From contig NC_086380.1 in assembly GCF_036588685.1 (NCBI RefSeq), forward strand, positions 33,594,313-33,658,312: a stretch of 64,000 bases of DNA. The letters run 5' to 3'. A program made the translations under genes and the position numbers. The notes under the pieces are model-generated. The model was given only the letters and a program-made list of their open reading frames with translations, did not search any database and had not been told where the DNA came from. The number at the start of each line of letters is the position of its first letter. Position 1 is the first letter of the stretch. The stretch comes from Mytilus trossulus. Lineage: Eukaryota. Shown here one piece after another: positions 7,515 to 56,566 of the stretch.

Positions 7515-8104
7515 TTTATCTGAGAAAAAAAAATGAAATTCTAATTGCCAGCTCATAAAAATGAAAGAATGAAGATATAATAGAGACATTCTAACTCATC
7601 AGTCATGAATATAAATAATTTACTGACAACATCATGGCAAAAAAGACCAAAAGACATTTCACAAAACACAACATAGAAATGTTAGGACAGCAACCCAACC
7701 CCACCAAACGATATAAACATGATTATGTTCATGTAAAACTGTTGTCCTCTAATTCTTAAACAAATTTTCATTTTCCTGACATGTTAATTATTTTTATTCA
7801 ATCAACGATTGATTTGTTAGATCTCAGAACCTGGTCAAAATTTGATTATGACTTCAAATTTGCTTACTTTTCTCTCAACTTACTATTGAAAGTGAGACGT
7901 CATGAAAAAAGGCGACCATGTCTAATGACCTCACATACAAAATGTAGAAAGAACACATATTTTTGCAGATCAATCAAATCAAAGGACTGAGTTTGTTTAA
8001 TGTCTGCATATTGTTTAAAATTCATCAGAGAAACAGATTCCACCATCACAACATTTGCAATACAATACTAATCAACTCTCAACAGATAAATCTAAATATT
8101 TAAA

Positions 8105-11860: not shown

Positions 11861-12349
11861 AAAATTAATAGATATAGGAAGATGTGATGTGGTTACAATT
11901 GCGCAATTATTTACAATGCATTTTCCATAGGGTACCCTGTCTCTTTGAATCCTAATAAAAAAAAAGTACATAAATTGCAGAGAAACCAAAGCCAGAATCT
12001 GAAAGGAGACATACTAAGAATTTATTTCAGTAAAAAAAAACAACATGCTTATGCGGCGGAAATTGCCTTAAATAGCTGTTGTTATGGACGCTTCCAAAAT
12101 CCGCACTAAATGACATAGCAAAATTTTCAGTCAACCTATTACCACAAAAAAAATATTTCCACAGAGAATACTAAATCAATCATTCCAAATTGTTACTATT
12201 TTTGCACAAAAATGGTTTATCTTTCATAAAATCAATAAATTGAAGGTATACCATCCAATCAGAAGCCTCATAGATTTTTTTCCTTACTACCATCTTGGGT
12301 TCAAAAACTTCCTGGTGAAATGTAAACAAATAATTGCGCAATTGTAACC

Positions 12350-16838: not shown

Positions 16839-16978
16839 ATGTCTGCACCAAGGAGATCAGCCGATGAGCCTATCTACAGAATACCACCATATTATTATTT
16901 ACATGTATTGGACCAAAATCTAAACATCACAAGACTAGAGATTGGTCCACAGACCTTCATTAGACAAGACAATGAAAG
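16839..16978 (+). CDS. MVP: MVP-A exon 1 ([46 protein letters not shown], phase-2 end)
   Basis: ATG at 16839, donor gtaagg at 16979. Confidence 0.8.
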
Positions 16979-17363
16979 GTAAGGACTTTTTCTATAGAGT
17001 GCTTCCACTTAACAAAAGGACCACCTACATATCTTGGACATATGTTTGATCAGAACCTTGAAAAAACAGAACTAGAAAAATTCCATAGACCTTTCTTTTT
17101 AATGTAAGGCCATGAAAGACAATTTTGTGTAATCACTACTAACTACTTCATTATATACAATGAACAATTATTCTTGATATTATTCTGCAATTTTTATTCA
17201 CAAAAAGAAGGAATTGTTTTTAATTAATGAAAATTATATTAATTTTTAAGTTTTTTTTCTTTTTACCTGTTTAAATTATTATTCTTACATTTCTCTAAGC
17301 TATTACTGTAATCCAAAGGGAAAAGCTAATGTATCATATACATGTGCATTTTTTTACTTACAG

Positions 17364-17559
17364 AGTTGTATATGGACCTGAGCGTATGATCACTGTCCCC
17401 CCAAGGCATTATTGTATTATTGAAAACCCAGTACTGAAAGACAAAGAATGTAAAGTTGTTTTTGACGAAAGTGGACAGGCCAAACTTGTACATGCTGACC
17501 AGGAGATTAGATTGGCACAGGATCCTTTCCCACTGTACCCCGGGGAAATACTGAAACAG
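17364..17559 (+). CDS. MVP: MVP-A exon 2 ((R)[65 protein letters not shown])
   Basis: Acceptor tttttacttacag, donor gtatga. ORF-track frame 17329-17565. Confidence 0.9.
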
Positions 17560-18462
17560 GTATGATGTACCATTATGCTACACTTTGTTTTCATGTACAA
17601 TGTATTACTGTATGGCAATTATGTTGGCAGGGTGTGAATTTTTGCTTATTTTAGTGGATAGAACAAAATTGCCAAAATAAATTCCTCCTATATAAAAGTT
17701 ATCATGCAAAGGTATTGATAAAATGGTTGAATCCACCATAACAATAACCACCAAAGTATTTCGTATACCTTATTCAATGAAAATCGCAAAATTTACTTCG
17801 CTATACAGTATATTGTAACTTTACTGGTATAATTATTGTCAACTTCATGGAGAGGAAGTTTCATATTGAGGACAAAAGGATCTGTTTTGCTATCTAGCGA
17901 ATCAGTTGCTACTTTCATCGCTGGCATAATTGCTCAATTGCAAGGGATTTTGTAAGCATTTATCTGCTAGTCAGATGATAACATCTGCTTTTGAAATATT
18001 AACAGATACAATTTGAATAAGATCTGAGGAAATTGACTTTTTGAATTTAAGAGTCATGCTTTTGTTATTAATGCATTATAAAATATGTCAGGATGTTGAA
18101 AGCAACTTTTGTAAAATTAAAATTGAAAAGGAAGTAATCATGTTTACAAGGTAAAATGAAGGTCTTGTTTCTATATAGTACAGGTAACATTTAAAATTTG
18201 TTATTAAATCAACATTGATCAGTAGAGTGACAAGGAAGTAAGATGTCTTAGATGTTTAAGTTGATAGCACACACCTTTAAATGTCGTTCACCAAATTAAA
18301 ATGACATGATGTTCAATAGTTAAACTACTATTTTCAAGGTTAACAATATTATGTATGATTTAAATCTTCTTTCATTTTTTGATATTCATAATATTAGGGC
18401 TAGGTTATTATGATGCGAAAAGTGTTAGCAGCAAATTTTATTATCTCCCTTATTGTTTATAG

Positions 18463-18813
18463 GTTGTAACTCCCTTGAAAGTGGTAGCTGCCAACTCAGC
18501 TCTTCGGCTCAGAGCTATTTTAGACTTTGAAGATGACGATGAGGAAAAGAGAACAGCTGGGGATGAGTGGCTATTTGAAGGACCAGGAACATATATCCCC
18601 AGGAAAGAGGTTGTTATTGAGGAGACTGTCAGGGCCACAGTCATTAGACCTAATCAGGCCATTAGACTGAGGGCCAGGAAGGAGACTATTGACAGACAAG
18701 GTGTTGCTAGGGTAACTGGTGAGGAATGGCTGGTGAAGAAGACCGGAGCTTACCTCCCAGGAGCTTATGAAGAAGTTGTGGATGTTGTCAACGCCTATGT
18801 TCTAACAGATAAG
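18463..18813 (+). CDS. MVP: MVP-A exon 3 ([49 protein letters not shown]…NAYVLTDK)
   Basis: Acceptor tttatag, donor gtaaag. ORF-track 18475-18828. Confidence 0.9.
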
Positions 18814-19163
18814 GTAAAGAGGCTGTAGAGGGTACATAAAATGTCTTTTTGTGGAAACATGAAAGTAAAAAATTCAAATTTACAGTGAAATTATATAAGC
18901 ACATTATTGTACCAGCACAAAATTTAGGTAGATTTTAATTTAGAAAAAAATAGATGGCATTTGATGTTTGTTTAGGCAAGACCCTACAATACCTTATAAA
19001 AGGTTACTATCTATAATACATGTTATTGAGAGGAGAAAAACCTATAGAATAAAGAGTAAATCATACCAAAAATATACAGTACTCCTTTAATTGATGATTC
19101 TAAATATGTTTGGAGGAAATATGTATATTAAAGTTATTAAATATTTTCTTTCACATCTTGCAG

Positions 19164-19289
19164 AAAGCCCTTCATATGAGGTCATTGAGAACATTTAAAG
19201 ATGACTTTGGTGTAACAAGAAAGAACGGAGAGGAATGGTTGATCAAAATGACAGACACAGAAACACACATACCTAATGTGTATGAAGAG
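19164..19289 (+). CDS. MVP: MVP-A exon 4 (KALHMRSLRTFKDDFGVTRKNGEEWLIKMTDTETHIPNVYEE)
   Basis: Acceptor tcttgcag, donor gtatgt. Confidence 0.9.
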
Positions 19290-19749
19290 GTATGTATCAT
19301 GTGTATTGCACTGGTGTAAAATAACACATAATAAGGTAGTCATATGTTCTTTGTATCAATTCAATATTAACTTACTGTACATGTCCATACAAGTAAATGT
19401 AATGTTTTCAATATCTTTAAACCAGCTGGTTAACTGGAACCATTTATACTTTTGCGTAACAAAATGATGGGGAAAAGTGTCAAACTTACGCAAAGCTTTA
19501 TAGAAAATGTAATTATAAATTGTACAAAATTGTCTGAAAAGGACTAATCCTTAAAAACTATCTCTGAAAAAAATTAATTGGTTTCCTTGTTTTAATCTCC
19601 AGAACCTCAGTTGATTGCACAGGGATCATTTTCTATAACCATAATTGATAAATGATTTACCTTAATTTTACATAAGGAACATTTATTTATGGAATGATAT
19701 CAATGTCTAGCTTCTGACTTTAATGGACATGACTTTATTTTTTCATCAG

Positions 19750-19860
19750 GTTGTTGGAGTAGTGAATATTACCACATTAACCAGCAGACAATACTGTATC
19801 ATCCTTGACCCTTCAGATGAGCATGGCAGACCACAACTTGGTAGAAAGAAGTTAGTTAAG
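19750..19860 (+). CDS. MVP: MVP-A exon 5 ([37 protein letters not shown])
   Basis: Acceptor ttttcatcag, donor gtatgg. Confidence 0.85.
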
Positions 19861-20171
19861 GTATGGTGAAAATTTGTTTCATGAGAAATAACCCCTTCAT
19901 TCTATTATCATGATTATAAAACAATATCAATTACTACTTTTACTTTACTTTAGGAACTGTGAAAATAATACAAACTTAGTGTGTACTGCAAAATACAATG
20001 CATTTAAAATTCTTCTTTTGGTTGGAATTTGATGTTTCTTATAATTTATTGATATAAAAAAGTTTTAATAACAGAAAATTCATTATTTTTTATCAAGGGT
20101 CACAGCTTCTCTTTATGGTGCAGAGAGAAACATTTGATTACAGTACTCATAATTTCAATTTTTTTTTATAG

Positions 20172-20297
20172 GGTGAGTGTTCATTCTTTTTGTTACCTGG
20201 AGAACGATTTGAGAGAGGAATCCAGAATGTCTACGTTCTGGGAGAAGATGAAGGTGTTATACTGAGAGCTACAGAATCATTTAAAGATACTGATGCT
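20172..20297 (+). CDS. MVP: MVP-A exon 6 ([42 protein letters not shown])
   Basis: Acceptor tttttttatag, donor gtaagt. Confidence 0.85.
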
Positions 20298-22899
20298 GTA
20301 AGTTTCACACATATTTAATAAAACCAAATATCTGGAAAGTCATAAATTGATATTGGTGTGTTGGGAGTGTAGGCCTCCTAGGTAGCTGGCACATATCTGA
20401 CATAGATTACAGCTGTTTCTGCTTAACTAACAGGGTATAAGTCATCTGTATATGATACAGTTTCACTCATAGATGAACGAGTGGTGGTATTAGGTCATTG
20501 AACTAACGTCATTAAAATGGAAATTTCTTAAATAGCATCCCCATGATGACTATGAAAAATCATAAGAACAACTAAAAAAATCAGAAAAGAGACTGAATTT
20601 CTTGGATACTTCCCCTTTACGAACATGTATCATGATGTTGACCATTTCTATATTTCTTGCATGCCTTCTTTGCATATTGTTGAACAAAAGTTGATGAATT
20701 TGACACAACTTTGAAATAATGAACCTTCTGTCATGATACAAATGTGGTAGGAGTGAATCTTTTGAAGAAATCTTATTTTATATATCAATGAAGTGAATCT
20801 GGTTATTTTGCAACCAAAAAATAGCATTGCTTTGAAAAGAAGACAATTAGATAAACTAACCTTTGTATAAAGGATAAACTTTGCCTTGAATAAGTGGTAC
20901 ATGTACTTTGAATACTGTACACTATAGAGTGACCACATATATTTCAAAGTTATGTCAAATGATTAGTTTGTTTTGTTGTAAAACATTTATTTACTCCGCA
21001 TGTTAATATTTTGTTGTATAACATTCATTTACTCTACTTGATAATGCTGTCTCCCTCTCTGTGCTCAATTCGCCATTTCAGAATCTAAGGGACTCTGGGT
21101 AATTTAATTGTTCATACATCTGAATAAAGTTTACATTACACAATTAGGTTGGATATTTTGGTGATTACCAAATAGGATGTTTTGTCATAAATTTGAAAAA
21201 AGAACATTACCCAGAATACATGACTGGTAGATTCTGAAATGGTAAATTGTAAAACAAGTTTGATCCTGAAAATTGTTACTAGAGTAGGTGAATTTAACTT
21301 TTTTGTTTATTTCAGACTGATGAAAAAGTAAGTCAACAAGTGCTTTTAGTGCTTTCAGTGCTTTGATCTAACTGTTATTCTTGTTATAAACATTTGCTAT
21401 AAGTAATGACCTGCTTCAGAATAGGAAGGGCCGCCTACAATTGTCTTGTGTTTTCAATGTGTGTGTGTCCTTTCTACCTGTTTTGCTAATGCGTTTTGTC
21501 CAGTGTTTTTTCTTATCAATATTATAGGAAGTCTTGAAATTGAATCATTCATTTTATTCAAAACAAGATTAATTGAATTACACAATATTGTGATAAGTTA
21601 ATTTCATAGATTTCCTGAAATAAAGTGTAATTCACCTGTTATTTTATTATTGCATTGGAAAGTGCTAGAATTATTTTGCATGTAATAAATATTAACTAAA
21701 GATTTCTTATAATTTGTGCTTCAATAACATAAGTATGTTTTATATTAGGTGCATATTTCAACCTCAATTCCATTGGGAGACTCCTATACTGTTTATACAA
21801 AAGTAAGTCACAGTGACTTAGCTTCGTAAATAGATATTTAAAAATTCAATGTTGTTTGAATATATTTGTTATATAATCTTTTGTTCAAGTTTTCAAAAGA
21901 AATTTTTAAAATCAAAGCATTTGAATAAGTTATTTTCAAAAACAATTCTTGAAACATAATAAATATTAATAAGCTTTATTCTCAAGAACCCATTCTTGGT
22001 ACAAAACAAATCAGCTATTTTCATGCTGTCATCTAATATTCATATCTGTTTAGCCTTTTATTGTCCCCAATATCAATGTAATACTTGCCACTGGACATAA
22101 AAAATTGATTCATTATTATTTGTTGGATTCCAATTTTCATGGGTTTTGTGAGTACAGGTGAACTATGATTCAAATGTTCAACACATTACAAATTTTCTAA
22201 TGGCTTCAAAAGCACAGATTGGCAATACCAAGAAATAAAATATCCACTTAAATGCAAATTATCCTGCATCAACCAAAATGCCTCAGATTGATTTAATTTG
22301 AGATGCACATTCTTGATATTTTCAAAGCTTTTTATTACTATTAAATCAGTTTGCTTGGTATTTATGCCATATCTGCTTGAACATAATAGTATATTCATTT
22401 TTTTTACATTTTCAAGACTTACATGACTAACACTGTTTGAGATTTCTATTCATTCAAATTTCAAAACACATTTCATCAAACTCCTTTACTTATAGAGACC
22501 TGTTTTCTGTGTTCATACTAAATCTGGCTTTAAAGTTCAATTTAATATAGCCTTCATGTAGCTTCACAGGGGTTCTATCTCTGAGCAATAAAATATTTTT
22601 CATGAAGTACAAGTTCAGTCCTTTGACAAAGTTTTTCTTAGTGCATTTAGCATGCTTATTGACTTAAGTTTTCACCTACAAGTTTTTCATTTCAACTTTA
22701 TACTTATATGGCTGCTTTTTAATGTAGAACTGTTGGTATTTTTATAAATACTATCAGTTTAAGTCTTCAGAAGTCATTTCTTTTCATACTAGCACATGAA
22801 AGGATCTATAGTCAAAACAAGATTTACAAAATCAAGATTCTGTTGGGAAAGATTTTTTATGACAACAAAGTTATTTATTATCAAACTTTTTTATTTAAG

Positions 22900-23049
22900 G
22901 ATGTTGAAAGGAAACCAGGAGATAAATGGATGATCAGGGGACCAGCAGAATATGTACCACCTGTAGAGGTCGAGGTCATCATGAAGAGAACTGCAATCCC
23001 ATTGGACGAAAATGAGGGTATCTATGTCAGAGATATTAAAACTGGAAAG
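22900..23049 (+). CDS. MVP: MVP-A exon 7 ([50 protein letters not shown])
   Basis: Acceptor ttatttaag, donor gttggt. The phase-0 junction is the same as in paralog B. Confidence 0.8.
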
Positions 23050-23494
23050 GTTGGTGTTACACATATATATATATACTAACATTAAAACTAGATATCACAA
23101 TAACAATTTTTTTTTTTTTTTAAATTCAAAAGTAAGATAACAATCTTTTTTAAATGGAATATTTGGCAAAATGAAGTTATTTTTTGAAGTGAGGATTTTT
23201 TCATGAATTTTGTTAAACAAAAAACAATCTATTTTGTATATAACCGAACAATTCTGAGAATTTTGTGTATGTTAGGAAACACCGGGGATCTCTATTTTGA
23301 CCAAAAAAAATAAATTATAAATGACGATTTGATGTATTGTTATGTTTTCAAAATACACTGGGTACTGTATATCATTATTGAGAGAACACACTTATAACCA
23401 TTTACATAGTAACATCTCCCGTCATCCATCAACGTTTGATATTGTCTTTTCACTAGTGAAGTTTTGACTAAGATTAACATTATACATATTATAG

Positions 23495-23733
23495 GTCAGA
23501 GCTGTAACTGGAGAAACCTATATGTTAAACCAAGATGAGGAATTATGGGCCAAGGAACTTCCTCCTGCAGTCGAGACCCTTCTTGCCCAAGGAAAGGACC
23601 CTATGGCTGACAGGAGTGACCGGTCCAAATCAAGCGATTCATCAAAACCAAGGGACAAGACTCGTGTTGTCACATTCAGAGTGCCACACAATGCTGCAGT
23701 ACAGATTTATGATTATAAAGAAAAGAAAGCCAG
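23495..23733 (+). CDS. MVP: MVP-A exon 8 ([24 protein letters not shown]…[29 protein letters not shown](R))
   Basis: Acceptor attatag, donor gtaaat, phase 2. Confidence 0.9.
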
Positions 23734-24376
23734 GTAAATAGTGCTTCATACTCAGTGTATACATTCCCTTATCCAACAGGCCATGAGCAGAATTAGGCCA
23801 GTCATTTAATTCATTACAATACATGAATATTGATTGAGTAGAAGGTACACATTGTATACCAACTTCTTTCAGGGCTTCAGTGGCTTAGTTGTCTAAGAGG
23901 TTCATATACAATCATCACAATCTTTCAATTTGAGGTTGCAATTTCATACTCAACGTGTTCTAACAAGTATGTTAGACGTCAATCTTAATCGACAAAAAAT
24001 GCCAGTTTTCCTGCTGAATATCAATGGTTTCTTTCATGATACTCTGGTTTCTTCCATCAACAAAAATTCTTTACTTAAGTCATTGTTAAGTGTTGATTAA
24101 CTTGGACATTTGAATCAGTATGATAAAAATAAATAGTTACTTAGTTGTGGAAATTCTCTTTATTTAGAGTTTTACATCTGTTATTTAAAGAATGAATAAT
24201 GTATGTTCATTGAAGATTATCAAAAGGAAGAACTCGTGTATGTCTATTGAAACTGTGTGAACAAATGATTATCATTGTTGAAACAGATTGTTATGCCCCT
24301 CTAGTGATTTTATTAAAAATTATCAAAACCCTTGGAATAAACAAATAATAGCCATGTAATTTTCTTTCTATTCTAG

Positions 24377-24719
24377 AGTTGTGTTTGGTCCAGAATTAGT
24401 TATGTTGGGTCCAGATGAACAATTCACACAGCTTAGTCTCTCTGGAGGTAAACCAAAGAAACAAAACGTTATCAAATCATTGTGTTTACTTCTGGGACCT
24501 GATTTCTGTACTGACATTATCACCGTAGAAACAGCCGATCACGCCAGGTTGTCACTTCAGTTATCATACAACTGGCACTTTGATATTAAAAATAAAGAAG
24601 ATAAGGCTGAGGCATCTAAGATTTTCAGTGTACCAGATTTTGTTGGGGATGCCTGCAAGGCCATTGCCTCCAGGATCAGAGGGGCCGTGGCACAAGTACA
24701 GTTTGATGATTTCCATAAG
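24377..24719 (+). CDS. MVP: MVP-A exon 9 ((R)[68 protein letters not shown]…QFDDFHK)
   Basis: Acceptor ttctag, donor gtatgc. Confidence 0.9.
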
Positions 24720-25500
24720 GTATGCTTAATGAACAAGTAGACCTGCATAGACACAGACATTACCACTGAAATATTTTTATAGGTCAAATTCATAAAATAA
24801 TTGTTTTACCTGTTGATTCAATATTCATAAATATTACGCATATAAAAATGAGTGTGGTATGATTGGCAATTAGAGTTCTCTTCACAACAGAGACAAAGTG
24901 GCATAGAATTTAACCTTGCATTTTAGTTTTATGAACAAATAGACATGAGCTAAAAATTGTCTTTCAAAATTATACTAAAGAATTATTTCCAAACTTTTCT
25001 CAAAATCCAGGGGTGGTGCTATAAACTCAAGACAATAAGAGAACCTCTCTTGAATATCCTTTGGTGTTCCCTGAGGCATATTGATATATACGGAAACTTT
25101 ATGTTTTTATTACTGCATAATATAACTTTTTCTCCTCAGGGCAAGGAGGGGCGTAAATAGGGGGAATCTGCACGGAAGAACACAAAATAAAATTGCCATT
25201 TCATGATGAACGAAAACTTAAAAGTTTCCTGCACGTTGATCTTTTTTACCGATTTCATGAAACACAGTGAATAACGAACTTTTTTCACGGCTGCACATGA
25301 AATAAAAATGGTAAAACACTTGGCATAAAAATAACCCTTTACCACCCTCGCAAAGGAGTGAATCAATCCTATCAAATAAAAAAAAATATATTATGCCATA
25401 CAAAAAAAATATACGATCACAAATAATCAGTACAGACTGAAAATTATCTACTGTGTACAGAAAAATTCAGAATTAAGAAATTTGCACATTTATGTTACAG

Positions 25501-25712
25501 AATTCTGCTAGAATCATCAGATCTTCTGTGTTTGGATTTGATGACAAAGACAAAGTGCGTGAAGTTTTCAAATTCCCCCAAAACAATTTGGTTTTCACCA
25601 GTATTGATATCCAGTCTGTAGAACCTGTAGATCAGAGAACAAGAGATGCTTTACAGAAATCTGTACAACTGGCCATTGAAATCACAACAAACTCACAGGA
25701 AGCTGCTGCAAG
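25501..25712 (+). CDS. MVP: MVP-A exon 10 ([70 protein letters not shown](R))
   Basis: Acceptor tatgttacag, donor gtagat, phase 2. Confidence 0.85.
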
Positions 25713-26370
25713 GTAGATAACTCTTCAGAAACTTATACTGGTATATTAAAAACACCAAATTATTGTACAGGAGACTACTGCAAAGTAGTCATTAAAACAC
25801 AGTTCAATTCAAGATGACTGTAGAATATTTATAAAATTGGAGATGTGGTATGATTGCCAATGAGACAACTCTCCACCAGAGACCAAACTACATAATAGTT
25901 AACAAATTAAGGTCACTGTATGGCCTTCAACAATGAGCAAAACCCATACTGCATAGTAAGCTATAAAGTGAATTCTAAGTCTGAGTACGTAAATCATACT
26001 CTAAATTTTTATAACCGCCTGGCCTGACAGTTGACTATAAGCTAGTGAGCTTATACAGATATTAGCTTACCATGTTCTAGAAAAATGCAATATATATTTT
26101 ATATCACAGCAATGTATATTTCCCCAAATTATGTTTGAAAATTTTCTGCTAAATGTTTAAATTTTCTTTATTCAAAACATGATACATGAATAGTGGCAAA
26201 AAGTTGGTTGCTTAATTTGTTTTGACTTACATATCATAATAAATAGAATGGGTCCTCATATGCAACTATTCCAGTCATAATTAGGTTCGATAACTCTGTA
26301 TGTGACTGGTTTAATTAGGATTATGTAAAATGTACTGGTTACCCGTGTAATGATTTCAAAAAAATATATA

Positions 26371-26431: not shown

Positions 26432-26484
<53 letters not shown>

Positions 26485-28250
26485 CGAATACTTTTAGTTT
26501 TCGCACTCTAACTTTAGTAAAAGTGAATAGAAATCTATGAAATTTTAACACAAGGTTTATGACCACAAAAGGAAGGCTGGTATTGATTTTGGGAGTTTTG
26601 GTCCCAACATTTTAGGAATTAAGGGCCAAAAAGGGCCCAAATAAGCATTTTCTTTGTTTTCGCACTATAACATTAGTTTAAGTAAATAGAAATCTATGAA
26701 ATTTTGACACAAGGTTTATGACCACAAAAGAAAGGTTGGTATTGATTTTGGGAGTTTTGATTCCAACAGTTTAGGAATTAGGGGCCAAAAAAGGGCCCAA
26801 ATAAGCATTATTCTTGGTTTTCGCACAATTACTTTAGTGTAAGTAAATAGAAATCAATGAAATTTAAACACAATGTTTATGACCACAAAAGGAAGGTTGG
26901 TATTGATTTTGGGAGTTTTGGTCCCAACAGTTTAGGAATAAGGGGCCCAAAGGGTCCAAAATTAAACTTTGTTTGATTTTATCCAAAATTGAATAATTGA
27001 AATTCCTTGATATGCCGAATCTAACTGTGTATGTAGATTCTTAATTTTTGGTCCCGTTTTCAAATTGGTCTACATTAAGGTTCAAAGGGTCCAAAATAAA
27101 ACTTAGTTTGATTTTGACAAAAATTGAATCAGTTGGGTTCTTTGATATGCTGAATTTAAAAATGTACTTAGATTTTTTAATGTTGGCCCAGTTTTCAAGT
27201 TGGTCCAAATCGGGGTCCAAAATTAAACTTTGTTTGATTTCATCAAAAATTGAATAAATGGGGTTCTTTGATATGCCAAATCTAACTGTGTATGTTGATT
27301 CTTCATTTTTGGTCCTGTTTTCAAATTGGTCTACATTAAAGTCCAAAGGGTCCAAAATTAAACTTAGTTTGATTTTAACAAAAATTAAATTCTTGGGCTT
27401 CTTTGATATGCTTTATCTAAACATGTACTTTGATTTTTGATTATGGGCCCAGTTTTCAAGTTGGTCCAAATCAGGATTCAAAATTATTACATTAAGTATT
27501 CTGGAATAGCAAGAAATTTTCAATTGCACAGTATTGCACAATAGCAAGAAATATCAAATTGCAGAGTATTGTGCAATAGCAATTATTTTTTTCAATTGGA
27601 GTTATCTTTCTTTGTATAGAATAGTAGTTGAATCAACTTTAATCATTGTTTTATACAATATACAATGTATTTTCATTTTTACTACCAACTGATAAATTAA
27701 AACAATCTTTACCATTCAGTGATAACAAGCACTTTTTATAACATTTTAATATTGTATGATGTATTTAAATGAGCAGTTATTGTTGCAAACTTCATTAGAA
27801 ATTTGAATTGAAATCAGTACATTATAACTTTAGTATAAGTGAATAGAAATCTATGAAATTTAAACACAAGGTTTATGACCATAAAAGGAAGGTTGGTATT
27901 GATTTTGGGAGTTTTGGTCCCAACAGTTTAGGAATTTTGGGCCCAAAGGGTCCAAAATTAAACTTTGTTTGATTTTGACAAAAATTGAATCCTTGGGGTT
28001 CTTTGATATGCTGAATCTAAAAATGTACTTATATTTTTAATTATTGGTCCAGTTTTCAAGTTGGTCTACACTAAGGTCCAAAGGGTCCAAAATCATAATG
28101 TGACATAAACCTATGTTGTGTCAACTATTTAATCACAATCCACATTTAAAGCTGTATCAAACTTAAAAGTTGTGTCCATACTTGTCCCATCTGTTCAGGG
28201 TTCTACATCTGCGGTCGTATAATGCTGCGCCCTGCGAAGCAACTGGTTCA
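26371..28250 (+). mobile_element. Composite TIR-bounded non-autonomous element inside MVP-A intron 10. Termini are TTTATACGACCGCA … TGCGGTCGTATAA. Interior contains a (GTC)n microsatellite (26433-26484), a ~160-bp satellite x3, a ~117-bp satellite x5-6, ~35-bp cagtattgcacaatagcaagaaat repeats and a unique tail.
   Basis: The two ends carry the same 13-nt motif in inverted orientation. The whole structure recurs on the - strand at 38996-41335 and 43921-45905. Confidence 0.65.
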
Positions 28251-36134: not shown

Positions 36135-37527
36135 TTTGGCAATCGCCAATGGCAGTCAGCAGGGTTAAAGAACATCAGTTGTTCGACCTGTTAGTCAAAT
36201 GCGTTTTGTTTAAATATACTTTTTCACTCTTTTGGTCTTTTGGAAAATGTTGTTTGTGCTGTTTTTAGACCCTTCTACAACGAAATTTGTTTGACATGCA
36301 CACGTATAAAAATTGCGGTTTTTATCCAACGCAGTCATAGGTTTGAACGTAGTTTTCAATTTAGACTCGTTTATATTTTTTGTTTGGGCATGTATCATAT
36401 TTTCCCTCCGGTTTATATGATCCGTTCATCCTATATATTGACTCTTAAAATTCAAGAGTTAATCTAAAAATGAGGGTACTTTCTCTAAAAATGAGGGTGC
36501 TTTTTATATGGCCTTCCAAATACCGTTTCGATCCCTAACATCACTGAAGAGACATTTATTGTCGAAATCCGGATATGGTGTACTAAAGAAATATTGACAC
36601 CGAATGTTTGTGGCACAACATCCTGTCCACAAGTTAACAAATTTTTTTTTTTCTGTGACGTATTAAATTTATAATCAGATCCATTTTGTTACAACCTGTG
36701 ATCAATTTTATTTGGCAATCGCCAATGGCAGTCAGCAGGGTTAAAGAACATCAGTTGTTCGACCTGTTAGTCAAATGCGTTTTGTTTAAATATACTTTTT
36801 CACTCTTTTGGTCTTTTGGAAAATGTTGTTTGTGCTGTTTTTAGACCCTTCTACAACGAAATTTGTTTGACATGCACACGTATAAAAATTGCGGTTTTTA
36901 TCCAACGCAGTCATAGGTTTGAACGTAGTTTTCAATTTAGACTCGTTTATATTTTTTGTTTGGGCATGTATCATATTTTCCCTCCGGTTTATATGATCCG
37001 TTCATCCTATATATTGACTCTTAAAATTCAAGAGTTAATCTAAAAATGAGGGTACTTTCTCTAAAAATGAGGGTGCTTTTTATATGGCCTTCCAAATACC
37101 GTTTCGATCCCTAACATCACTGAAGAGACATTTATTGTCGAAATCCGGATATGGTGTACTAAAGAAATATTGACACCGAATGTTTGTGGCACAACATCCT
37201 GTCCACAAGTTAACAAATTTTTTTTTTTTCTGTGACGTATTAAATTTATAATCAGATCCATTTTGTTACAACCTGTGATCAATTTTATTTGGCAATCGCC
37301 AATGGCAGTCAGCAGGGTTAAAGAACATCAGTTGTTCGACCTGTTAGTCAAATGCGTTTTGTTTAAATATACTTTTTCACTCTTTTGGTCTTTTGGAAAA
37401 TGTTGTTTGTGCTGTTTTTAGACCCTTCTACAACGAAATTTGTTTGACATGCACACGTATAAAAATTGCGGTTTTTATCCAACGCAGTCATAGGTTTGAA
37501 CGTAGTTTTCAATTTAGACTCGTTTAT
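36135..37527. repeat. 576-bp tandem repeat, 2.4 copies, copies identical to the base. Bounded by (TA)n on both sides.
   Basis: Period 576 (unit starts at 36135, 36711 and 37287). The ORF-track pairs 36210/36786 and 36240/36816 are 100% identical. The third copy is truncated where (TA)n begins at ~37527. Confidence 0.85.
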
Positions 37528-37700
37528 ATATATATATATATATATATAACATTGTTGGGTTGATGTCTAGACGAGTTGTATATATATACATTGTTGGGTT
37601 GATGTTTAGACGAGTTGTATATATATACATTGTTGGGTTGATATTTAGACGAGCTGTATATATATATATATATATACAATTCGTCTAAACATCAACCCAA
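37527..37700. repeat. (TA)n plus 3 x ~40-bp tandem motif acattgttgggttgat(g/a)t(c/t)tagacgag(t/c)tgtatatatata, followed by its inverted copy. Forms a local palindrome.
   Basis: Direct reading. The inverted copy caattcgtctaaacatcaacccaacaatgtta lies at 37678-37709. Confidence 0.7.
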
Positions 37701-38995: not shown

Positions 38996-41335
38996 ACCAG
39001 ATGCTCCGCAGGGCGCAGCTTTATACGACCGTAGAGGTTGAACCCTGAACGGTTGGGGCAAGTATGGACACAACATGCAAGCTGGATTCAGCTCTAAATT
39101 TGGATTGTGATTAAATAGTTGACACAGCATAGGATTCTGACACAGAATGAATGTGGTCTAATGAACTTAAAAAAAATGTTTTGCCTTTGAGCAATTCACT
39201 ATGCTGTTGAATATTAATCCTCTCAAAAAAATGTTTGAAGAAATTTTCTTTTTATTTATGAAATCTGAAATGAAAAAAATTGACCCCCCCAATTTTTTTT
39301 CACATCCCCCTTCCCTTATTTCAAAACTGATCTCAATTCAAATTTCTAATGAAGTTTGCAACAATAACTACTCATTTAAATACATCATAAAATATTAAAA
39401 TGTAAAAAAAAGTGCTTGTTATTACTGAATGGTAAAGATTGTTTTAATCTATCAGTTGGTAGTAAAAGTGAATATACATTGTATATTGTATAAAACAATG
39501 ATTTAAGTTGATTCAACTACTATTCTGGACAAAGAAAGATAACTCCAATTGAAATCCAATTGGAATTTCTTGCTATTGCACAATATTGTGCAATTAGATA
39601 TTTCTTGCTATTGTGCAATACTGTGCAATTGAAAATATTTGCTATTGCACAATACTGTGCAATTGAAGATTTCTTGCTATTGCACAATACTATGCAATTG
39701 AAGATTTCTTGCTATTGCAGAATACTGTGCAATTGAAAATTTCTTGCTATTGCACAATACTTAATATAATAATTTTGGATCCTGATTTGGACCAACTTGA
39801 AAACTGGGCCCATAATCAAAAATCTAAGTACATGTTTAGATTCAGCAAATCAAAGAGGCCCAAGGATTCAATTTTTGTTAAAATCAAACTTAGTTTAATT
39901 TTGGACCCTTTGGACTTTTATGTAGACCAATTTTAAAACCGGACCAAAAATTAAGAATCTACATACACAGTTAGATTTGGCATATCAAAGAACCCCAATT
40001 ATTCAATTTTTGATGAAATCAAACAAAGTTTAATTTTGGACCCCGATTTGGACCAACTTGAAAACTGGGCCAATAATAAAAAATCTAATTACATTTTTAG
40101 ATTCAGCATATCAAAGAACCCCAAGGATTCAATTTTTGTTAAAATCAAACTAAGTTTAATTTTGGACCCTTTGGACTTTAATGTAGACCAATTTTAAAAC
40201 CGGACCAAAAATTAAGAATCTACATACACAGTTAGATTTGGCATATCAAAGAACCCCAATTATTCAATTTTTGATGAAATCAAACAAAGTTTAATTTTGG
40301 ACCCCGATTTGGACCAACTTGAAAACTGGGCCAATAATCAAAAATCTAAGTACATTTTTAGATTCAGCATATCAAAGAACCCCAAGGATTCAATTTTTGT
40401 TAAAATCAAACTAAGTTTAATTTTGGACCCTTTGGACCTTAATGTAGACCAATTTGAAAACGGGACCAAAAATTAAGAATCTACATACACAGTTAGATTT
40501 GGCATATCAAAGAACCCCAATTATTCAATTTTTGATGAAATCAAACAAAGTTTAATTTTGAACCCTTTGGGCCCTTTATTTCTAAACTGTTGGGACCAAA
40601 ACTCCCAAAATCAATACCAACCTTCCTTTTATGGTCATAAACCTTGTGTTTAAATTTCATAGATTTTTATTTACTTATACTAAAGTTATGGTGCGAAAAC
40701 CAAGAAAAATGCTTATTTGGGTCCCTTTTTGGCCCCTAATTCCTAAACTGTTGGGACATAAACTCCCAAAATCAATACCAACCTTCCTTTTGTGATCATA
40801 AACATTGTGTGTTAATTTCATTGATTTCTATTTACTTAAACTAAAGTTATTGTGCGAAAACCAAGAATAATGCTTATTTGGGCCCTTTTTTGGCCCCTAA
40901 TTCCTAAACTGTTGGAACCAAAACTCCCAAAATCAATCCCAACCTTTCTTTTGTGGTCATAAACCTTGTGTCAAAATTTATATAGATTTCTATTAACTTA
41001 AACTAAGGTTATAGTGCGAAAACCAAGAAAATGCTTATTTGGGCCCTTTTTGGCCCCTAATTCCTAAAATATTGGGACCAAAACTCCCAAAATCAATCCC
41101 AACCTTCCTTTTGTGGTCATAAACCTTGTGTTAAAATTTCATAGATTTCTATTCACTTTTACTAAAGTTAGAGTGCGAAAACTAAAAGTATTCGGAAGAC
41201 GACGACGACGCCGCCGACGCCGACGAATACGCCGACGCCGACGACGACGCCGACGCCGACATGGACGCCAACGTGATAGCAATATACGACGAAATTTTTT
41301 TCAAATTTTGCGGTTGTATAAAAATCAATCAAGCG
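38996..41335 (-). mobile_element. Composite TIR-bounded satellite-bearing element, copy 2. Intergenic, ~1.2 kb downstream of the MVP-B stop.
   Basis: Collinear reverse complement of 26371-28250. Terminus …gcagggcgcagctttatacgaccgtagagg is at 38996 and …caaattttgcggttgtataaaaatc is at 41300-41335. An imperfect (GAC/GCC)n tract lies at 41198-41265. Confidence 0.65.
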
Positions 41336-43920: not shown

Positions 43921-45826
43921 AGTTTTAAAAACCAGATGCTCCGCAGGGCGTAGCTTTATACGACCGCAGAGGTTGAACCCTGAACGGTTGGGGCAAGTAT
44001 GGACACAACATTCAAGCTGGATTCAGCTCTAAATTTGGATTGTGATTAAATAGTTGACACAGCATAGGTTTCTGACACAGAATGAATGTGTTCTAATGAA
44101 CTTAAAATTTTTGTTTTCTCTTAGAGCAATTCACTATGCTGTTGAATATTTATCCTCTCAAAAAAATGTTTGAAGAAATTTTCTTTTTATTTATGAAATT
44201 TCAAATGAGAAAAATTTAACCCAATTTTTTTAATCACATCCCCCTTTCCCTTATTCCAAAACTATTCTCAATTAAATTTCTAATGGAGTTTGCAACAATA
44301 ACTACTCATTTAAATACATCATAAAATATTAAGATGTAAAAAAACTGCTTGTTATCACTGAATGGTAAAGATTATTTTAATTTATCAGTTGGTAGTAAAA
44401 AGTGAATATACATTGTATGTAACAAAGATTTGAGTTGATTCTTGACAAAGAAAGATAACTCTAATTAAAAAAAAATATTGCTATTTCACAATATTGTGCA
44501 ATTAGATATTTCTTGCTTACTATTCTGGACAAAGAAAGATAACTCTAATTAAAAAAAAATATTGCTATTTCACAATATTTCACAATATTGTGCAATTAGT
44601 TATTTCTTGCCATTGTGCAATACTGTGCAATTGAAAAGACTTGCTATTGCACAATACTTAATATAATATTTTAGATCCTGATTTGGACCAACTTGAAAAC
44701 TGGGCCTTTAATCAAAAATCTAAGTACATGTTTGGATTCAGCATATCAAAGAACCCCAAGATTTCAATTTTTGTTAAAATCAAACTTAGTTTAATTTTGG
44801 ACCCTTTGGACTTTAATGTAGACCAATTTTAAAACTGGACCAAAAATGAAGAATCTACATACACATTTAGATTTGGCATATCAAGAACCCCATTTATTCA
44901 ATTTTTGATGAAATCAATCAAAGTTTAGTTTTGGACCCCGATTTGGACCAACTTGAAAACTGGGCCAATAATCAAGAATCTAAGTACATTTTTAGATTCA
45001 GCATATCAAAGAACCCCAAGGTTTCAATTTTTGTTAAAATCAAACTAAGTTTAATTTTGGACCCTTTGGACCTTAATGTAGACCAATTTGAAAACGGGAC
45101 CAAAAATTAAGAATCTACATACACAGTTAGATTCGGCATATTAAAGAACCCCAATTATTCAATTTTGATGAAATCAAACAAAGTTTAATTTTGGACCCTT
45201 TGGGCCCCTTTTTCCTTAACTGTTGGGACCAAAACTCCCAAAATCAATACCAACCTTCCTTTTATAGTCATAAACCTTGTGTTTAAATTTCATAGATTTC
45301 TATTTACTTATACTAACGCTATGGTGCTAAAACCAAGAAAAATGCTTATTTGGGTCCCTTTTTGGCCCCCAATTCCTAAACTGTTGGGACCGAAACTCCC
45401 AAAATCAATACCAACCTTCCTTTTGTGGTCATAAACATTATGTTTAAATTTCATTGATTTCTATTTACTTTAACTAAAGTTATTGTGCGAAAACCAAGAA
45501 TAATGCTTATTTGGGCCCTTTTTTGGCCCCTTATTCCTAAACTGTTGAAACCAAAACTCCCAAAATCAATCCCAACCTTTCTTTTGTGGTCATACACCTT
45601 GTGTCAAAATTTCATAGATTTCTATTAACTTAAACTAAAGTTATAGTGCGAAAACCAAGAAAATGCTTATTTGGGCCCTTTTTGGCCCCTAATTCCTAAA
45701 ATGTTGGGACCAAAACTCCCAAAATCAATACCAGCCTTCCTTTTATGGTCATAAACCTTGTGTTAAAATTTCATAGATTTCTATTCACTTTTACTAAAGT
45801 TAGAGTGCGAAAACTAAAAGTATTCG

Positions 45827-45858
<32 letters not shown>

Positions 45859-52535: not shown

Positions 52536-52900
52536 CTGCAAGATAACAACATACATGTTCATGCTGTCTAATACGTTGTACGTTATTTAAAATGTGATTT
52601 ATTATGGAAAAAATCACTTTAAGGACTAGTAAACTGTTTAATTCAATAAATCTGCATGTTCGTTTTTACAATTATAGTATTTATGCATGTGTATTTAACG
52701 TCTTTATGATACTGTAGTAGCTGATTTGTTTTTTCTTTCACAAATTACCATGCAAAGTATGTTTTAAAAATTCAAGAGTTCAAACTATCACATCCACAAT
52801 CAAAACCCTGAAACATGTACTGACAGATCAAAGATCTATTTTGAACCCGTATTTCACCCTATTAAATCATATCATATCAACTGAATGAAATTATATTTAC

Positions 52901-53251
52901 CTTATCTGTTAGAACATAGGCGTTGACAACATCTACAACTTCTTCATAGGCTCCTGGGAGGTAAGCTCCGGTCTTCTTCACCAGCCATTCCTCGCCAGTT
53001 ACCCTAGCAACACCTTGTCTGTCAATGGTCTCCTTCCTGGCCCTCAATCTTATGGCCTGGTTAGGTCTAATGACTGTGGCCCTGACAGTCTCCTCAACAA
53101 CAACCTCCTTCCTTGGGATATATGTTCCTGGTCCTTCAAAAAGCCACTCATCCCCAGCTGTTCTCTTTTCCTCATCATCATCTTCAAAGTCTAGAATAGA
53201 TCTCAGACGAAGAGCTGAGTTAGCTGCAACCACTTTCAGGGCGGTTACAAC
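52901..53251 (-). CDS. MVP: MVP-B exon 3 ([49 protein letters not shown]…NAYVLTDK)
   Basis: ORF-track 52877-53233. Acceptor gtttatag, donor gtaaat. Confidence 0.9.
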
Positions 53252-53269
53252 CTATAAACAAAGGAGAAA

Positions 53270-55610
53270 ATCTAGTCTGCTGCTACCAATTTCAAAGATT
53301 GCAACCTTTAAACCAAAAGGGTGAAAATCAATTAAAATCTACCATTTTCAACGGTGGTACACCTTTAATCAACAAGCGAGAGAATTAAATCAGCTGCTAC
53401 CACTTTCATGGGGAGGGGGGTTACAACTAATAAATAACAAGGGAGATAGCCAAATCAGCTGCTACTACCTTTATAGGGTAAAACTAATTAACAACAAGGG
53501 AGGAAATCAAATCAGCTGCTACCACTGTGAGAGGAGGGTTACAACCAATACAGAACACTTGAAATGAGAAAATCAATTCAGCAGCTGCCACTTTTAGGGG
53601 AGCTACAACCAACAAACAACAAGGGAGATAACCAAATCAGCTGCTACCATAGGCAGGGGTGGGTTACAACCAATACACAACGCTAGAAAGGAGATAACTA
53701 ACCAGCTGCTACTACAGTCAGGGGAGGGTTACAACCAACAAACAAGGGAGATAACCAAATCAGCTGCTACTACAGTCGGGGTAGGGTTACAACCAACAAA
53801 CAAGGGAGATAACCAAATCAGCTGCTACTACAGTCAGGGGAGGGTTACAACCAACAAACAAGGGAGATAACCAAATCAGCTGTTACTACAGTCGGGGGAG
53901 GGTTACAACCAACAAACAAGGGAGATAACCAAATCAGCTGTTACTACAGTCAGGAGAGAGTTACACCCAACAAACAAGGGAGATAACCAAACCAGCTGCT
54001 ACTACTGTCAGGGGAGAGTTACAACCAACAAACAAGGGAGATAACCAAATCAGCTGCTACTACAGTCAGGGGTGAGTTACAACCACCAAACAAGGTAGAT
54101 AACCAAACCAGCTGCTACTTCAGTCGGGGGAGAGTTACAACCAACAAACAAGGGAGATAACCAAACCAGCTGCTACTACTGTCGGGGGAGAGTTACAACC
54201 AACAAACAAGGGAGATAACCAAATCAGCTGCTACTACAGTCGGGGGAGGGTTACAACCAACAAACAAGGAAGATAACCAAACCAGCTGCTACTACAGTCA
54301 GGGGTGAGTTACAACCACCAAACAAGGTAGATAACCAAACCAGCTGCTACTTCAGTCGGGGGAGAGTTACAACCAACAAACAAGGGAGATAACCAAACCA
54401 GCTGCTACTACTGTCGGGGGAGAGTTACAACCAACAAACAAGGGAGATAACCAAATCAGCTGCTACTACAGTCGGGGGAGGGTTACAACCAACAAACAAG
54501 GAAGATAACCAAACCAGCTGCTACTACAGTCAGGGGTGAGTTACAACCAACAAACAAGGGAGATAACCAAAGCAGCTGCTACTACTGTCGGGGGGAGAGT
54601 TACAACCAACAAACAAGGGAGATAACCAAATCAGCTGTTACTACAGTCAGGGGAGAGTTACAACCAACAAACAAGGGAGATAACCAAATCAGCTGCTACT
54701 ACAGTCAGGGGAGGGTTACAACCAACAAACAAGGGAGATAACTAAACCAGCTGCTACTACAGTCAGGGGTGAGTTACAACCAACAAACAAGGAAGATAAC
54801 CAAACCAGCTGCTACTACTGTCAGGGGAGAGTTACAACCAACAAACAAGGGAGATAACCAAAACAGCTGCTACTACAGTCGGGGTAGGGTTACAACCAAC
54901 AAACAAGGGAGATAACCAAATCAGCTGCTACTACTGTCAGGGGTGAGTTACAACCAACAAACAAGGGAGATAACCAAATCAGCTGCTACTACAGTCAGGG
55001 GTGAGTTACAACCAACAAACAAGGGAGATAACCAAACCAGCTGCTACTACAGTCGGGGGAGAGTTACAACCAACAAACAAGGGAAATAACCAAATCATCT
55101 GCTACTACTGTCGGGGGAGGGTTACAACCAACAAACAAGGGAGATAACCAAATCAGCTGCTACTACAGTCAGGGGAGAGTTACAACCAACAAACAAGTGA
55201 GACAACCAAATCAGCTGCTACTACTGTCAGGGGAGGGTTACAACCAACAAACAAGGCTGAAAACCAAATCAGCTGATACTACTGTCAGTGGAGGGTTACA
55301 ACCAACAAACAAGGCTGAAAACCAAATCAGCTGCTACTACTGTCAGGGGAGGGTTACAACCAACAAACAAGGCTGAAAACCAAATCAGCTGATACTACTG
55401 TCAGGGGAGGGTTACAACCAACAAACAAGGCTGAAAACCAAATCAGCTGATACTACTGTCAGGGGGTGGGGTGACAAACAAAAAAACAACACTTGAAACG
55501 AGATAATCAAATCAGCTGCTGCCACTTTTATGGGAGCTACAAACTTCAAACAACGATGGAGGAAATCAAATCAGCTTCTGCCACTTAAAACGAATATACC
55601 AGCCGTGGAG
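53270..55610. repeat. Satellite array of ~58-bp monomers (caaatcagctgctactacagtcaggggagggttacaaccaacaaacaagggagataac), ~38 copies filling MVP-B intron 2. Homogenised core at 53700-55450, degenerate edges.
   Basis: Direct reading of the tandem periodicity. Monomer variants GGGGAGGG, GGGGTGAG and GGGGAGAG alternate. Edge units become progressively divergent towards exon 3'. Confidence 0.9.
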
Positions 55611-55946
55611 GTGGTATCATTGAAAGTCAATCAGAGATCAATGTAACAAATGTTTTCCTTTACTTCATTATGTTTTATTGCAAATATTACTATTATAACA
55701 CGCAACCGATGAGCTGTAACACTTAAGGTAATAATGCATATAAACTTCTTAACCCTGATCACTTATATATTACTGGGTTTACTGGTTAGATGCTCACGAT
55801 TACTATTGGGGGAAACCGTGCCCAAAAGCTTAAATTAAAACAACTCATCTATTTTCGACAAGTAATAATACATTTTATTTATTGTAACCACTAAGTGCAG
55901 TTAATTGCTATATCAAAACTTGGACCTGTAACCACGAACATCATAC

Positions 55947-56142
55947 CTGTTTCAGTATTTCCCCGGGGTACAGTGGGAAAGGATCCTGTGCCAATCTAAT
56001 TTCATGGTCAGCATGTACAAGTTTGGCCTGTCCACTTTCGTCAAAGACAACTTTACATTCTTTGTCTTTCAGTACCGGGTTTTCTACGATACAATAATGC
56101 CTTGGGGGTACTGTGATCATACGCTCTGGTCCATATACAACT
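55947..56142 (-). CDS. MVP: MVP-B exon 2 ((K)[65 protein letters not shown])
   Basis: ORF-track 55941-56162. Acceptor ttaacatttacag. Confidence 0.9.
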
Positions 56143-56566
56143 CTGTAAATGTTAATACGCAAAATTTGTATCCAGCTAGCAAAATTTGTATCCAGCTAAT
56201 TACGGTATACATAGACTTTTAAAAAATTATAACCTGATTAATATTGAGTTGAACTTGGTCTGGCCTATCTGACAAATGAAATGCAAGAAAATCTTGTCAA
56301 TCCAAAACCTTGTTACTAGTATTAGATTAAGTTGTTAATTCTATGATACAAAATAAAAAAAAAATAGTTTCATATAACATTGGGTAATTTTTCCTTCAAG
56401 TGAACTTTCTCCTTTTGGTGCAAAAAAATATCCATGAAACTCTTTTTCTTTTAAAGGTCGTTCTTCCGATAGAATAAAAACACTAGTGTGAGGGGGGATA
56501 TCCACTATGACAATTAGCTGAGCAGACATTCTACTCACGAAATAAATATGCTATAGTTATACTTAC

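Follow-up and report, generated by a model that had tools for sequence, protein, structure and literature searches.

The 64,000-nucleotide stretch of the Mytilus trossulus genome analysed here (RefSeq assembly GCF_036588685.1, contig NC_086380.1, positions 33,594,313 to 33,658,312 of the forward strand; hereafter the window, with positions counted from its first letter) contains two convergent major vault protein (MVP) genes, paralog A on the + strand and paralog B (MVP-B) on the − strand. Intron 2 of MVP-B carries a 58-bp tandem repeat that is very probably a 'mirage'-type intronic minisatellite, i.e., one whose unit is a duplicated intron/exon boundary. The host gene encodes Vault repeats (PF01505 and PF17794), and its intron 2/exon 3 junction obeys the GT-AG rule. 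Exon 2 of MVP-B (55947..56142, − strand; tblastn and sequence) covers the Vault_2 region, and exon 3 (52901..53251, − strand) comprises 117 codons of a Vault repeat (PF01505), as judged by translation, tblastn, and homologues. As a query, exon 3 retrieved PF01505 proteins by the hundreds, with identities of up to 95%; an exact look-up of its open reading frame (ORF) for other haplotypes returned no record. Read from the sequence, its acceptor AG is the 'ct' at 53252-53253 and its donor GT lies at 52899-52900. Intron 2 (53252-55946, 2695 bp) starts with a non-repetitive 5' part of 317 bp (55630..55946, − strand; donor CAG|GTATGA at 55946). In paralog A, exon 2 (17365-17559, +) and exon 3 (18463..18813, +; tblastn) flank an intron 2 of 903 bp.

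The array was called by Tandem Repeats Finder (TRF) and then characterized by an anchored scan for in-register units, a unit alignment, a per-unit table, and a distance matrix. At 53690-55465, TRF reported a 58-bp period repeated 30.6 times with 93% matches, and the anchored scan found 40 in-register occurrences from 53220 to 55571, beginning with the start of exon 3 itself. The sequence directly upstream of this exon holds 40 repeat units (u01 to u40; 53276-55629, approximately 2.4 kb), namely 30 core, 7 proximal degenerate, and 3 distal degenerate units, all described here on the − strand. Both methods thereby recovered the intronic tandem array that a preliminary description of this DNA had placed beside MVP-B exon 3, and the strings quoted in that description are present at 53222-53264 and, for example, at 53704-53748. 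The authentic intron 2/exon 3 junction (u00, 53220..53275) is itself the terminal in-register member of the array, 56 bp from u01, as seen in the anchored scan, the unit alignment, and the nhmmer search described below. The proximal degenerate units (u01 to u07, 53276..53701) are 56–66 bp long and keep ancestral states such as GAAAGTGGTAGCAGC; u01 and u02 also keep the AG. The homogenised core (u08 to u37, 53702..55442) consists of 30 units of 58 bp, with the gene-strand consensus TTTGGTTATCTCCCTTGTTTGTTGGTTGTAACTCTCCCCTGACTGTAGTAGCAGCTGA; its units are 88–98% identical to this consensus and differ from one another at 0–10 positions. Within the core, u34 to u37 (55211..55442) form a distal sub-family with the GCTGAAAACC variant, in which GCTGCT and GCTGAT alternate. 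The distance matrix also revealed a recently duplicated four-unit block of 232 bp (54050-54281 and 54282-54513), whose copies differ at 1 position. We also considered a higher-order repeat, given the 174-bp period that TRF reported, but lag analysis showed no regular structure, and the weak minimum at lag 4 stems from this single block duplication.

Beyond the core are the three distal degenerate units (u38 to u40, 55443..55629). The homogenised core of the preliminary description thus stands, whereas its statement that the units nearest the exon are the most divergent needs amending, as degenerate units occur on both flanks. Edge units share only 42–80% identity with the core consensus, and the two flanks mirror each other across the core: u06 and u39 are 83% identical and u05 and u38 77% identical (for comparison, u05 and u07 share 79%). 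This mirroring shows that the homogeneous core expanded inside an older, diverged array of about 10 units.

The 58-bp monomer is fully accounted for by approximately 27 nt of the intron 2 tail and approximately 31 nt of the exon 3 start, so that a unit's exonic half corresponds to the first ~31 nt of this exon. In the intron-tail part, the monomer reads TTTGGTTATCTCCCTTGTTTGTTG and paralog A reads TTTTATTATCTCCCTTATTGTTTATAG; in the exon-start part, the monomer reads GTTGTAAC...GTAGCAGCTGA and the exon reads GTTGTAACTCCCTTGAAAGTGGTAGCTGCCA. In a multiple alignment that included the junctions of seven loci, all 41 units (41/41) are collinear with the A and B junctions and with those of the related contigs L002, L014, and L007. 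Across the whole monomer, with gaps in the multiple alignment counted as mismatches, the core consensus is 72% identical to the true junctions, and pairwise alignments give 74–78%, in agreement with the collinear identity of roughly 75% estimated previously. The exon-like halves of edge units still translate into near exon 3 peptides, for example VVAPLKVAAA (u06), VVTPLPMKVVAA (u03), and FVAPIKVAAA (u39). Since the exon part encodes residues that are conserved in the MVPs of distant taxa, the derivation runs from the exon to the repeat.

The similarity between monomer and junction was assessed with an nhmmer profile of consecutive core dimers, which was run against the 64-kb window with the array masked. 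Only two significant matches were obtained: the junction of paralog A (18422-18491; 27.1 bits, E = 1.7e-7), which is the top match of the core profile anywhere in the window, and the junction of MVP-B (53221-53272; E = 3.3e-6). There was no further significant match in the rest of the masked window, where all other hits had E > 0.4. We also built an empirical background of 12,296 80-nt segments from both strands and used shuffled sequences as a second control. The ten best of the 12,296 background segments all fall on the A and B junctions, which score 55 and 43; the background mean is 12.8 (standard deviation 2.6), and the top unrelated segment scores 32. Against the shuffles, the z values of the two junctions are 18 and 11.8. 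The likeness is thus far above chance. Nor can the match at the A junction, which lies 35 kb away, have arisen as an edge effect of the array. No second copy of the 58-mer was found in the remaining 61 kb of the window by either the profile or the empirical scan, and an Rfam scan of the window gave no matches. Outside the window, a scan of a metagenome collection with the most conserved 20-mer (GTTACAACCAACAAACAAGG) returned 4 isolated single matches and 0 arrays, which we treated as chance, and the sole long reading frame of the repeat (57 amino acids per three units) yielded no candidate among 5.8 billion predicted proteins; as negatives on the 58-mer, these two results are weak.

These data bear on the alternative that a pre-existing dispersed satellite, or a repeat borne by a transposable element (TE), was inserted beside exon 3 and resembles the junction by chance or through low-complexity, A/C-rich composition. 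TE-like composite tandem repeats do occur elsewhere in the window (26433-27582, 39557-41260, and 44576-45857), and the search for the repeat covered the window, the metagenome collection, and the predicted proteins rather than the whole genome. However, the core profile has no match in these composite repeats, whose sequence is unrelated; the monomer matches the non-adjacent junction of paralog A with the E value and z value given above; and, given the conserved residues encoded by the exon part, the exon cannot be derived from the repeat. The isolated single matches of the 20-mer scan and the empty ORF search point the same way, as do the two-copy intermediates and the independent array, grown from a different junction sequence, that are described below. 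Unlike a tandem repeat derived from a bivalve miniature inverted-repeat TE (MITE) or Helitron-type element, the array has exon 3 as one neighbour and unique intron sequence as the other, and its flanks contain neither TE termini nor a microsatellite. We therefore regard the insertion of a dispersed repeat as very improbable.

The composite repeat itself is present in 3 copies, one of them inverted, in and between the 3' halves of both MVP paralogs. By TRF, its parts follow the order of a (CGT)n or (GAC)n microsatellite, 159–161-bp tandem repeats, 135/261-bp tandem repeats, and 35-bp repeats, none of them related to the 58-bp array. We take these elements to resemble the tandem-repeat-bearing mobile elements reported in bivalves.

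Comparison of the two paralogs and of related loci revealed junctions with few copies. The exons 3 of A and B share 93.7% nucleotide identity (~22 of 351 positions differ) with 3 amino-acid changes, and the exons are open in both genes; with such open, conserved exons, both paralogs look functional. Across the alignment of 16872-25731 with 56673-48437, the identity is a mosaic, with 92–97% in exons 2 to 4 and 76–90% in exon 1 and the later exons. The introns cannot be aligned, except that the homology block reaches exactly 44 nt into intron 2 upstream of exon 3. This mosaic suggests that gene conversion may have acted across exons 2 to 4 of an older inverted duplication. As described previously, intron 2 of paralog A contains no array; however, it is not free of the repeat, as the alignment showed a two-copy state (18403..18462, +) in which one degenerate pseudo-copy of the exon 3 start (18403-18435) is followed by the intron tail (18436-18462) of the real junction. 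The nhmmer alignment at this junction spans 69 model positions, exceeding one 58-bp unit.

Contigs carrying close relatives of exon 3 (L001 onward) were collected by ORF look-ups. Their exon 3 nucleotide identity to A and B of the window is 86–87% in the clade of L001 to L006, L013, and L014, 83–85% in L007, and ~70% in L015 and L016. The exons of L017 and L018 are ~84% identical to those of A and B; one later exon of L017 is 90% identical to A versus 83% to B. In L001 to L006, L014, and L018 to L025, intron 2 is only ~0.4 kb long, and at its end exactly one pseudo-copy of the junction precedes the real one. At these loci, the alignment to the core-dimer profile covers model positions 4–114 (or 4–111 or 4–100), i.e., nearly two full units, and in L014 and L002 the upstream pseudo-copy has its own copy of the intron tail. 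No intronic copy of the junction was found in the more distant L007, L015, and L016. L017, a 190-kb long-read contig labelled 21x, contains a longer array of 59 bp × 9.2 copies with 99% matches. Its 8 extra units are perfect or one base off, and each combines the intact acceptor TTTTAG|GTAGTAAC with the initial 29 nt of exon 3. L018, from another assembly, has flanks 96–99% identical to those of L017, yet only 2 copies, as do eight short-read contigs. The copy number at the MVP junction hence varies between near-identical sequences, which may or may not be haplotypes of one species. The L017 units are 98% identical to their own junction and 69.5% identical to the window core; being far closer to the former, they represent an expansion independent of that in MVP-B.

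The L017 array also bears on the possibility that the MVP-B array, or its length, is an artefact of repeat reads having been collapsed or expanded. Assemblies are prone to error in tandem repeats, and one short-read contig of the related locus (L027) is chimeric around the repeat; however, the units of MVP-B are non-identical, fall into structured sub-families, and end in ordered, mirrored degenerate edges, none of which is produced by assembly error, and an analogous array is present in this independent long-read contig. An artefact is thus very improbable. The chimeric contig is a short-read metagenome assembly in which exon 3 fragments and reverse-complemented junction units are joined in scrambled order (L027:1-1008); we rejected an inverted structural variant in favour of a chimeric assembly around the repeat. 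The MVP repeat breaks short-read assemblies in this way and gives rise to spurious 'proteins' such as P0060.

The long-read contig and its relative differ at further repeats. A second boundary-spanning duplication, of 66 bp × 2, lies at the acceptor of a later exon starting with GECSFFMMPGERLE (L017:12210-12340); its unit consists of ~24 nt of intron tail and 42 nt of exon, it is absent from L018 (~12212-12276), and its upstream copy would lead to an in-frame stop if its acceptor were used. A minisatellite with a 63–64-bp unit has ~7 copies in L017 (6043-6497) versus 3 in L018 (6734-6922), and a block of 322 bp × 5 and 167 bp × 4 occurs only in L017 (1704-3984), without a counterpart in L018. 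Judged from these sequences, the turnover of tandem repeats seems to be generally high in these mussels.

The position of intron 2 was also compared among more distant MVP genes. In L008 (9600-10060; 81% amino-acid identity), the intron is shifted 21 nt (7 codons) downstream relative to Mytilus, in the context ...LKQAVAPLK|intron|VVVANAAL, versus the Mytilus break after ...LKQ. In the relatives P0007, P0010, and others, the ORF runs from exon 2 into exon 3 without an intron. Intron 2 therefore varies in presence and position across taxa.

Splice signals within the MVP-B units were then compared with those of the true junction. The dinucleotide homologous to the acceptor is TG in all core units (30/30), and AG is found in just 3 of the 40 units (u01, u02, and u39). 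The figure of ~38 pseudo-acceptors given in the preliminary description was accordingly too high, because the variant that was amplified had already lost the acceptor AG. An in-frame TGA, formerly attributed to every unit, is present at codon 6 in 18 of the 30 core units; another 11 have CGA instead and meet TAG stops 2–3 codons further on, while u23, frame-shifted by a 1-nt insertion, is stop-free across its 11 translated codons. On the gene strand, each core unit nevertheless contains three AGs (TAG, TAG, and CAG), a branch-point-like CTGAC, and a pyrimidine-rich CCCTCCCC tract, and cryptic acceptors at shifted positions within core units are conceivable from the sequence.

These motifs raise the question of whether the array functions in the processing of MVP-B pre-mRNA, either by supplying many decoy 3' splice signals or by serving as a C-rich and pyrimidine-rich protein-binding platform that would tune the splicing or expression of B relative to A. 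The branch-point-like motif, the pyrimidine tract, and the three AGs of the core units are compatible with such a role, as are the composition of the core on the gene strand (62% pyrimidine and 46% GC, versus 33% GC for the window) and the restriction of the array to paralog B. Set against this, the near-identical contigs L017 and L018 of a relative differ in copy number, paralog A does without an array, and the units decay toward the array edges. A functional array is therefore unlikely, and the array would appear to have no function of its own. Its presence is presumably tolerated because the authentic acceptor is in the exon-adjacent terminal unit and the amplified units are devoid of the homologous AG; that an AG-less variant was the one to be amplified may be due to selection against decoy acceptors.

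Taken together, the results support a local seed for the repeat, namely the intron 2 acceptor plus the start of exon 3, as had been proposed; in place of the term satellite used in that proposal, the array is better called a locus-specific minisatellite, not a demonstrated genome-wide satellite. The local seed is supported by five independent lines of evidence: the only significant matches outside the array are the two paralogous junctions; the whole monomer is explained as intron tail plus exon start, with edge units giving near-exon peptides; a two-copy intermediate is present in paralog A, L001 to L006, L014, and L018 to L025 and absent from L007, L015, and L016; L017 independently expanded its own junction; and no further copy was detected in the window, the metagenome scan, or the translated-ORF search.

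These data show a stepwise history. First, a segment of ~58 bp, in which ~27 nt of the intron 2 tail are joined to the initial 31 nt of MVP exon 3, was duplicated once, giving the two-copy state that paralog A, the exon-proximal end of the B array, and the related mussel lineage have in common. The array of paralog B then grew to ~10 units and decayed, leaving the degenerate units on both flanks as remnants. Within this older array, one variant unit was amplified to 30 copies; this variant had lost the acceptor AG (to TG), changed GAAAGTGG to GACTGTAG, and gained 2 nt, hence the in-frame stops. The latest step was the 232-bp duplication of the four-unit block. Growth probably proceeded by replication slippage or by unequal sister-chromatid or allelic exchange, as assumed for other minisatellites. 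The sequence comparisons show that the two-copy state predates the expansion in B and that growth was stepwise, with a late amplification of the core.

Several points weigh against this account. That MVP-B is spliced correctly and that the array is neutral is what we infer from sequence, and other 58-mer arrays could still exist elsewhere in the Mytilus genome. Gene conversion may have moved the two-copy junction between the paralogs, so that, with the mosaic identity of A and B, the first junction duplication may have come either before or after the duplication of the gene into A and B. The clade of L001 and L017 could be either orthologous or an old paralog. Finally, the array length comes from a single assembly and may be imprecise.

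The closest known counterparts are the mirage minisatellites of amphioxus, which were described in Adh3 with units of 10–72 bp (Canestro et al. 2002, NAR 30:2871, as cited in PMC3087553), in the globins BflGb6 and BflGb9 with units of 150–160 bp (Ebner et al. 2010, PMC3087553), and also in the TnC and PGBD5 genes (PMC3902484). In BflGb6, the 3' end of the intron together with the 5' portion of exon 2 is repeated, one haplotype having 6 units and another 3, and the centre of the array is under concerted evolution, with divergent units at the boundaries (PMC3087553). The MVP-B array shares the structural features of a mirage. Its unit, of minisatellite scale at 58 bp, contains an intronic and an exonic part and spans the intron/exon boundary; the array is contiguous with the authentic boundary, which forms its terminal in-register unit; and, as in BflGb6, what is duplicated is the 3' end of an intron together with the start of the next exon. 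Copy number differs between the BflGb6 haplotypes and, at the related MVP locus, between the near-identical contigs L017 and L018 (10 versus 2). In MVP-B as in the mirages, homogenisation affects the core but not the boundary units. AG/GT signals are kept by some but not all mirage units, and AG by 3 of the 40 MVP-B units. The differences are that the host is a bivalve mollusc, Mytilus; that the array has 40 units in 2.4 kb, compared to 3–6 units in the globin mirage; that the amplified core is entirely without the acceptor AG; and that a series of states (1 copy, 2 copies, ~10 decayed units, and 30 homogenised units) is legible across paralogs and relatives. The phenomenon is thus already known, and MVP-B is a large new example of it.

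A second counterpart is the 37-bp variable number tandem repeat (VNTR) in intron 7 (IVS7) of human F7, whose first element spans the donor boundary of exon 7 (Borensztajn et al. 2006, PMC1557585). There, the authentic site is accompanied by a row of sequence-identical, normally silent pseudo-sites, and 5'-to-3' scanning has been shown (PMC1557585). In both F7 and MVP-B, an exon/intron boundary thus falls within the first element of the minisatellite; however, F7 has a duplicated 5' donor site with pseudo-sites downstream, whereas MVP-B has a duplicated 3' acceptor with pseudo-sites upstream, and the scanning rule of F7, if applied naively to MVP-B, would favour the wrong, most upstream site. 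Tandem duplication of AG|GT segments has also been linked to the creation or sliding of introns (Rogers 1989, Zhuo et al. 2007, and Gao and Lynch 2009, as cited in PMC3087553). As in that process, a small internal tandem duplication in MVP-B brings splice signals and adds intronic sequence, but no new intron arose; instead, the intron grew from ~0.4–0.9 kb to 2.7 kb. The birth of intron 2 itself by a Rogers-type duplication was considered and rejected, since the duplicated unit has its own copy of the intron tail and the intron must have come first. In its head-to-tail arrangement, homogenised centre, and divergent edges, the MVP-B array also resembles classical satellites and TE-derived repeats of bivalves; unlike these, it is a single euchromatic, intragenic array of 2.4 kb with a unit derived from a gene junction rather than a TE, and neither the window nor the metagenome scan nor the ORF search revealed a second locus. 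Its size and distribution are those of a minisatellite and not of a demonstrated genome-wide satellite family.

The MVP locus thus offers an unusually complete record of the birth of a tandem array from unique sequence, as all stages are found in paralogs or relatives, and it extends mirages, otherwise described solely in cephalochordates within the accessible literature, from amphioxus to a mollusc. An L017-type allele, in which eight perfect acceptor copies lie upstream, constitutes a natural experiment on 3' splice-site choice and is the acceptor counterpart of the human F7 intron 7 VNTR, which has been used to study donor-site scanning. If the AG-less state does reflect selection against decoys, these alleles would form a natural allelic series for the choice of the last of several identical 3' splice sites. 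On the practical side, junction arrays can mislead gene predictors through pseudo-exon starts and inflate differences in intron length between paralogs. More tentatively, and with rather less than even probability, mirages may be recurrent in mussel genes too, and the MVP acceptor may be a hotspot with two or more independent expansions, one giving an old, AG-less array (the 30 core units) and another a very young one with 8 perfect decoys (L017); the second boundary duplication in the same gene of L017 can be cited alongside this reading.

Some further features of the window deserve mention. Intron 1 of MVP-B contains a perfect tandem duplication of 20 bp × 2 (GCAAAATTTGTATCCAGCTA; 56159-56198), which ends 16 nt before the acceptor of exon 2, does not span the boundary, and is absent from paralog A. 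A single-exon coiled-coil ORF lies at 6708-7589 (−); its 268-amino-acid query is 97% identical to an uncharacterised protein of Mytilus edulis and 87% identical to one of M. coruscus, which by itself places the window in a Mytilus mussel. A 21-bp × 2 repeat (TCTAAAAATGAGGGTACTTTC) is found at 36463-36503 and again at 37039-37079, 576 bp apart, a pairing that suggests a larger, putative duplicated element, and near these repeats TRF called an array of 39 bp × 3.3 at 37539-37666.

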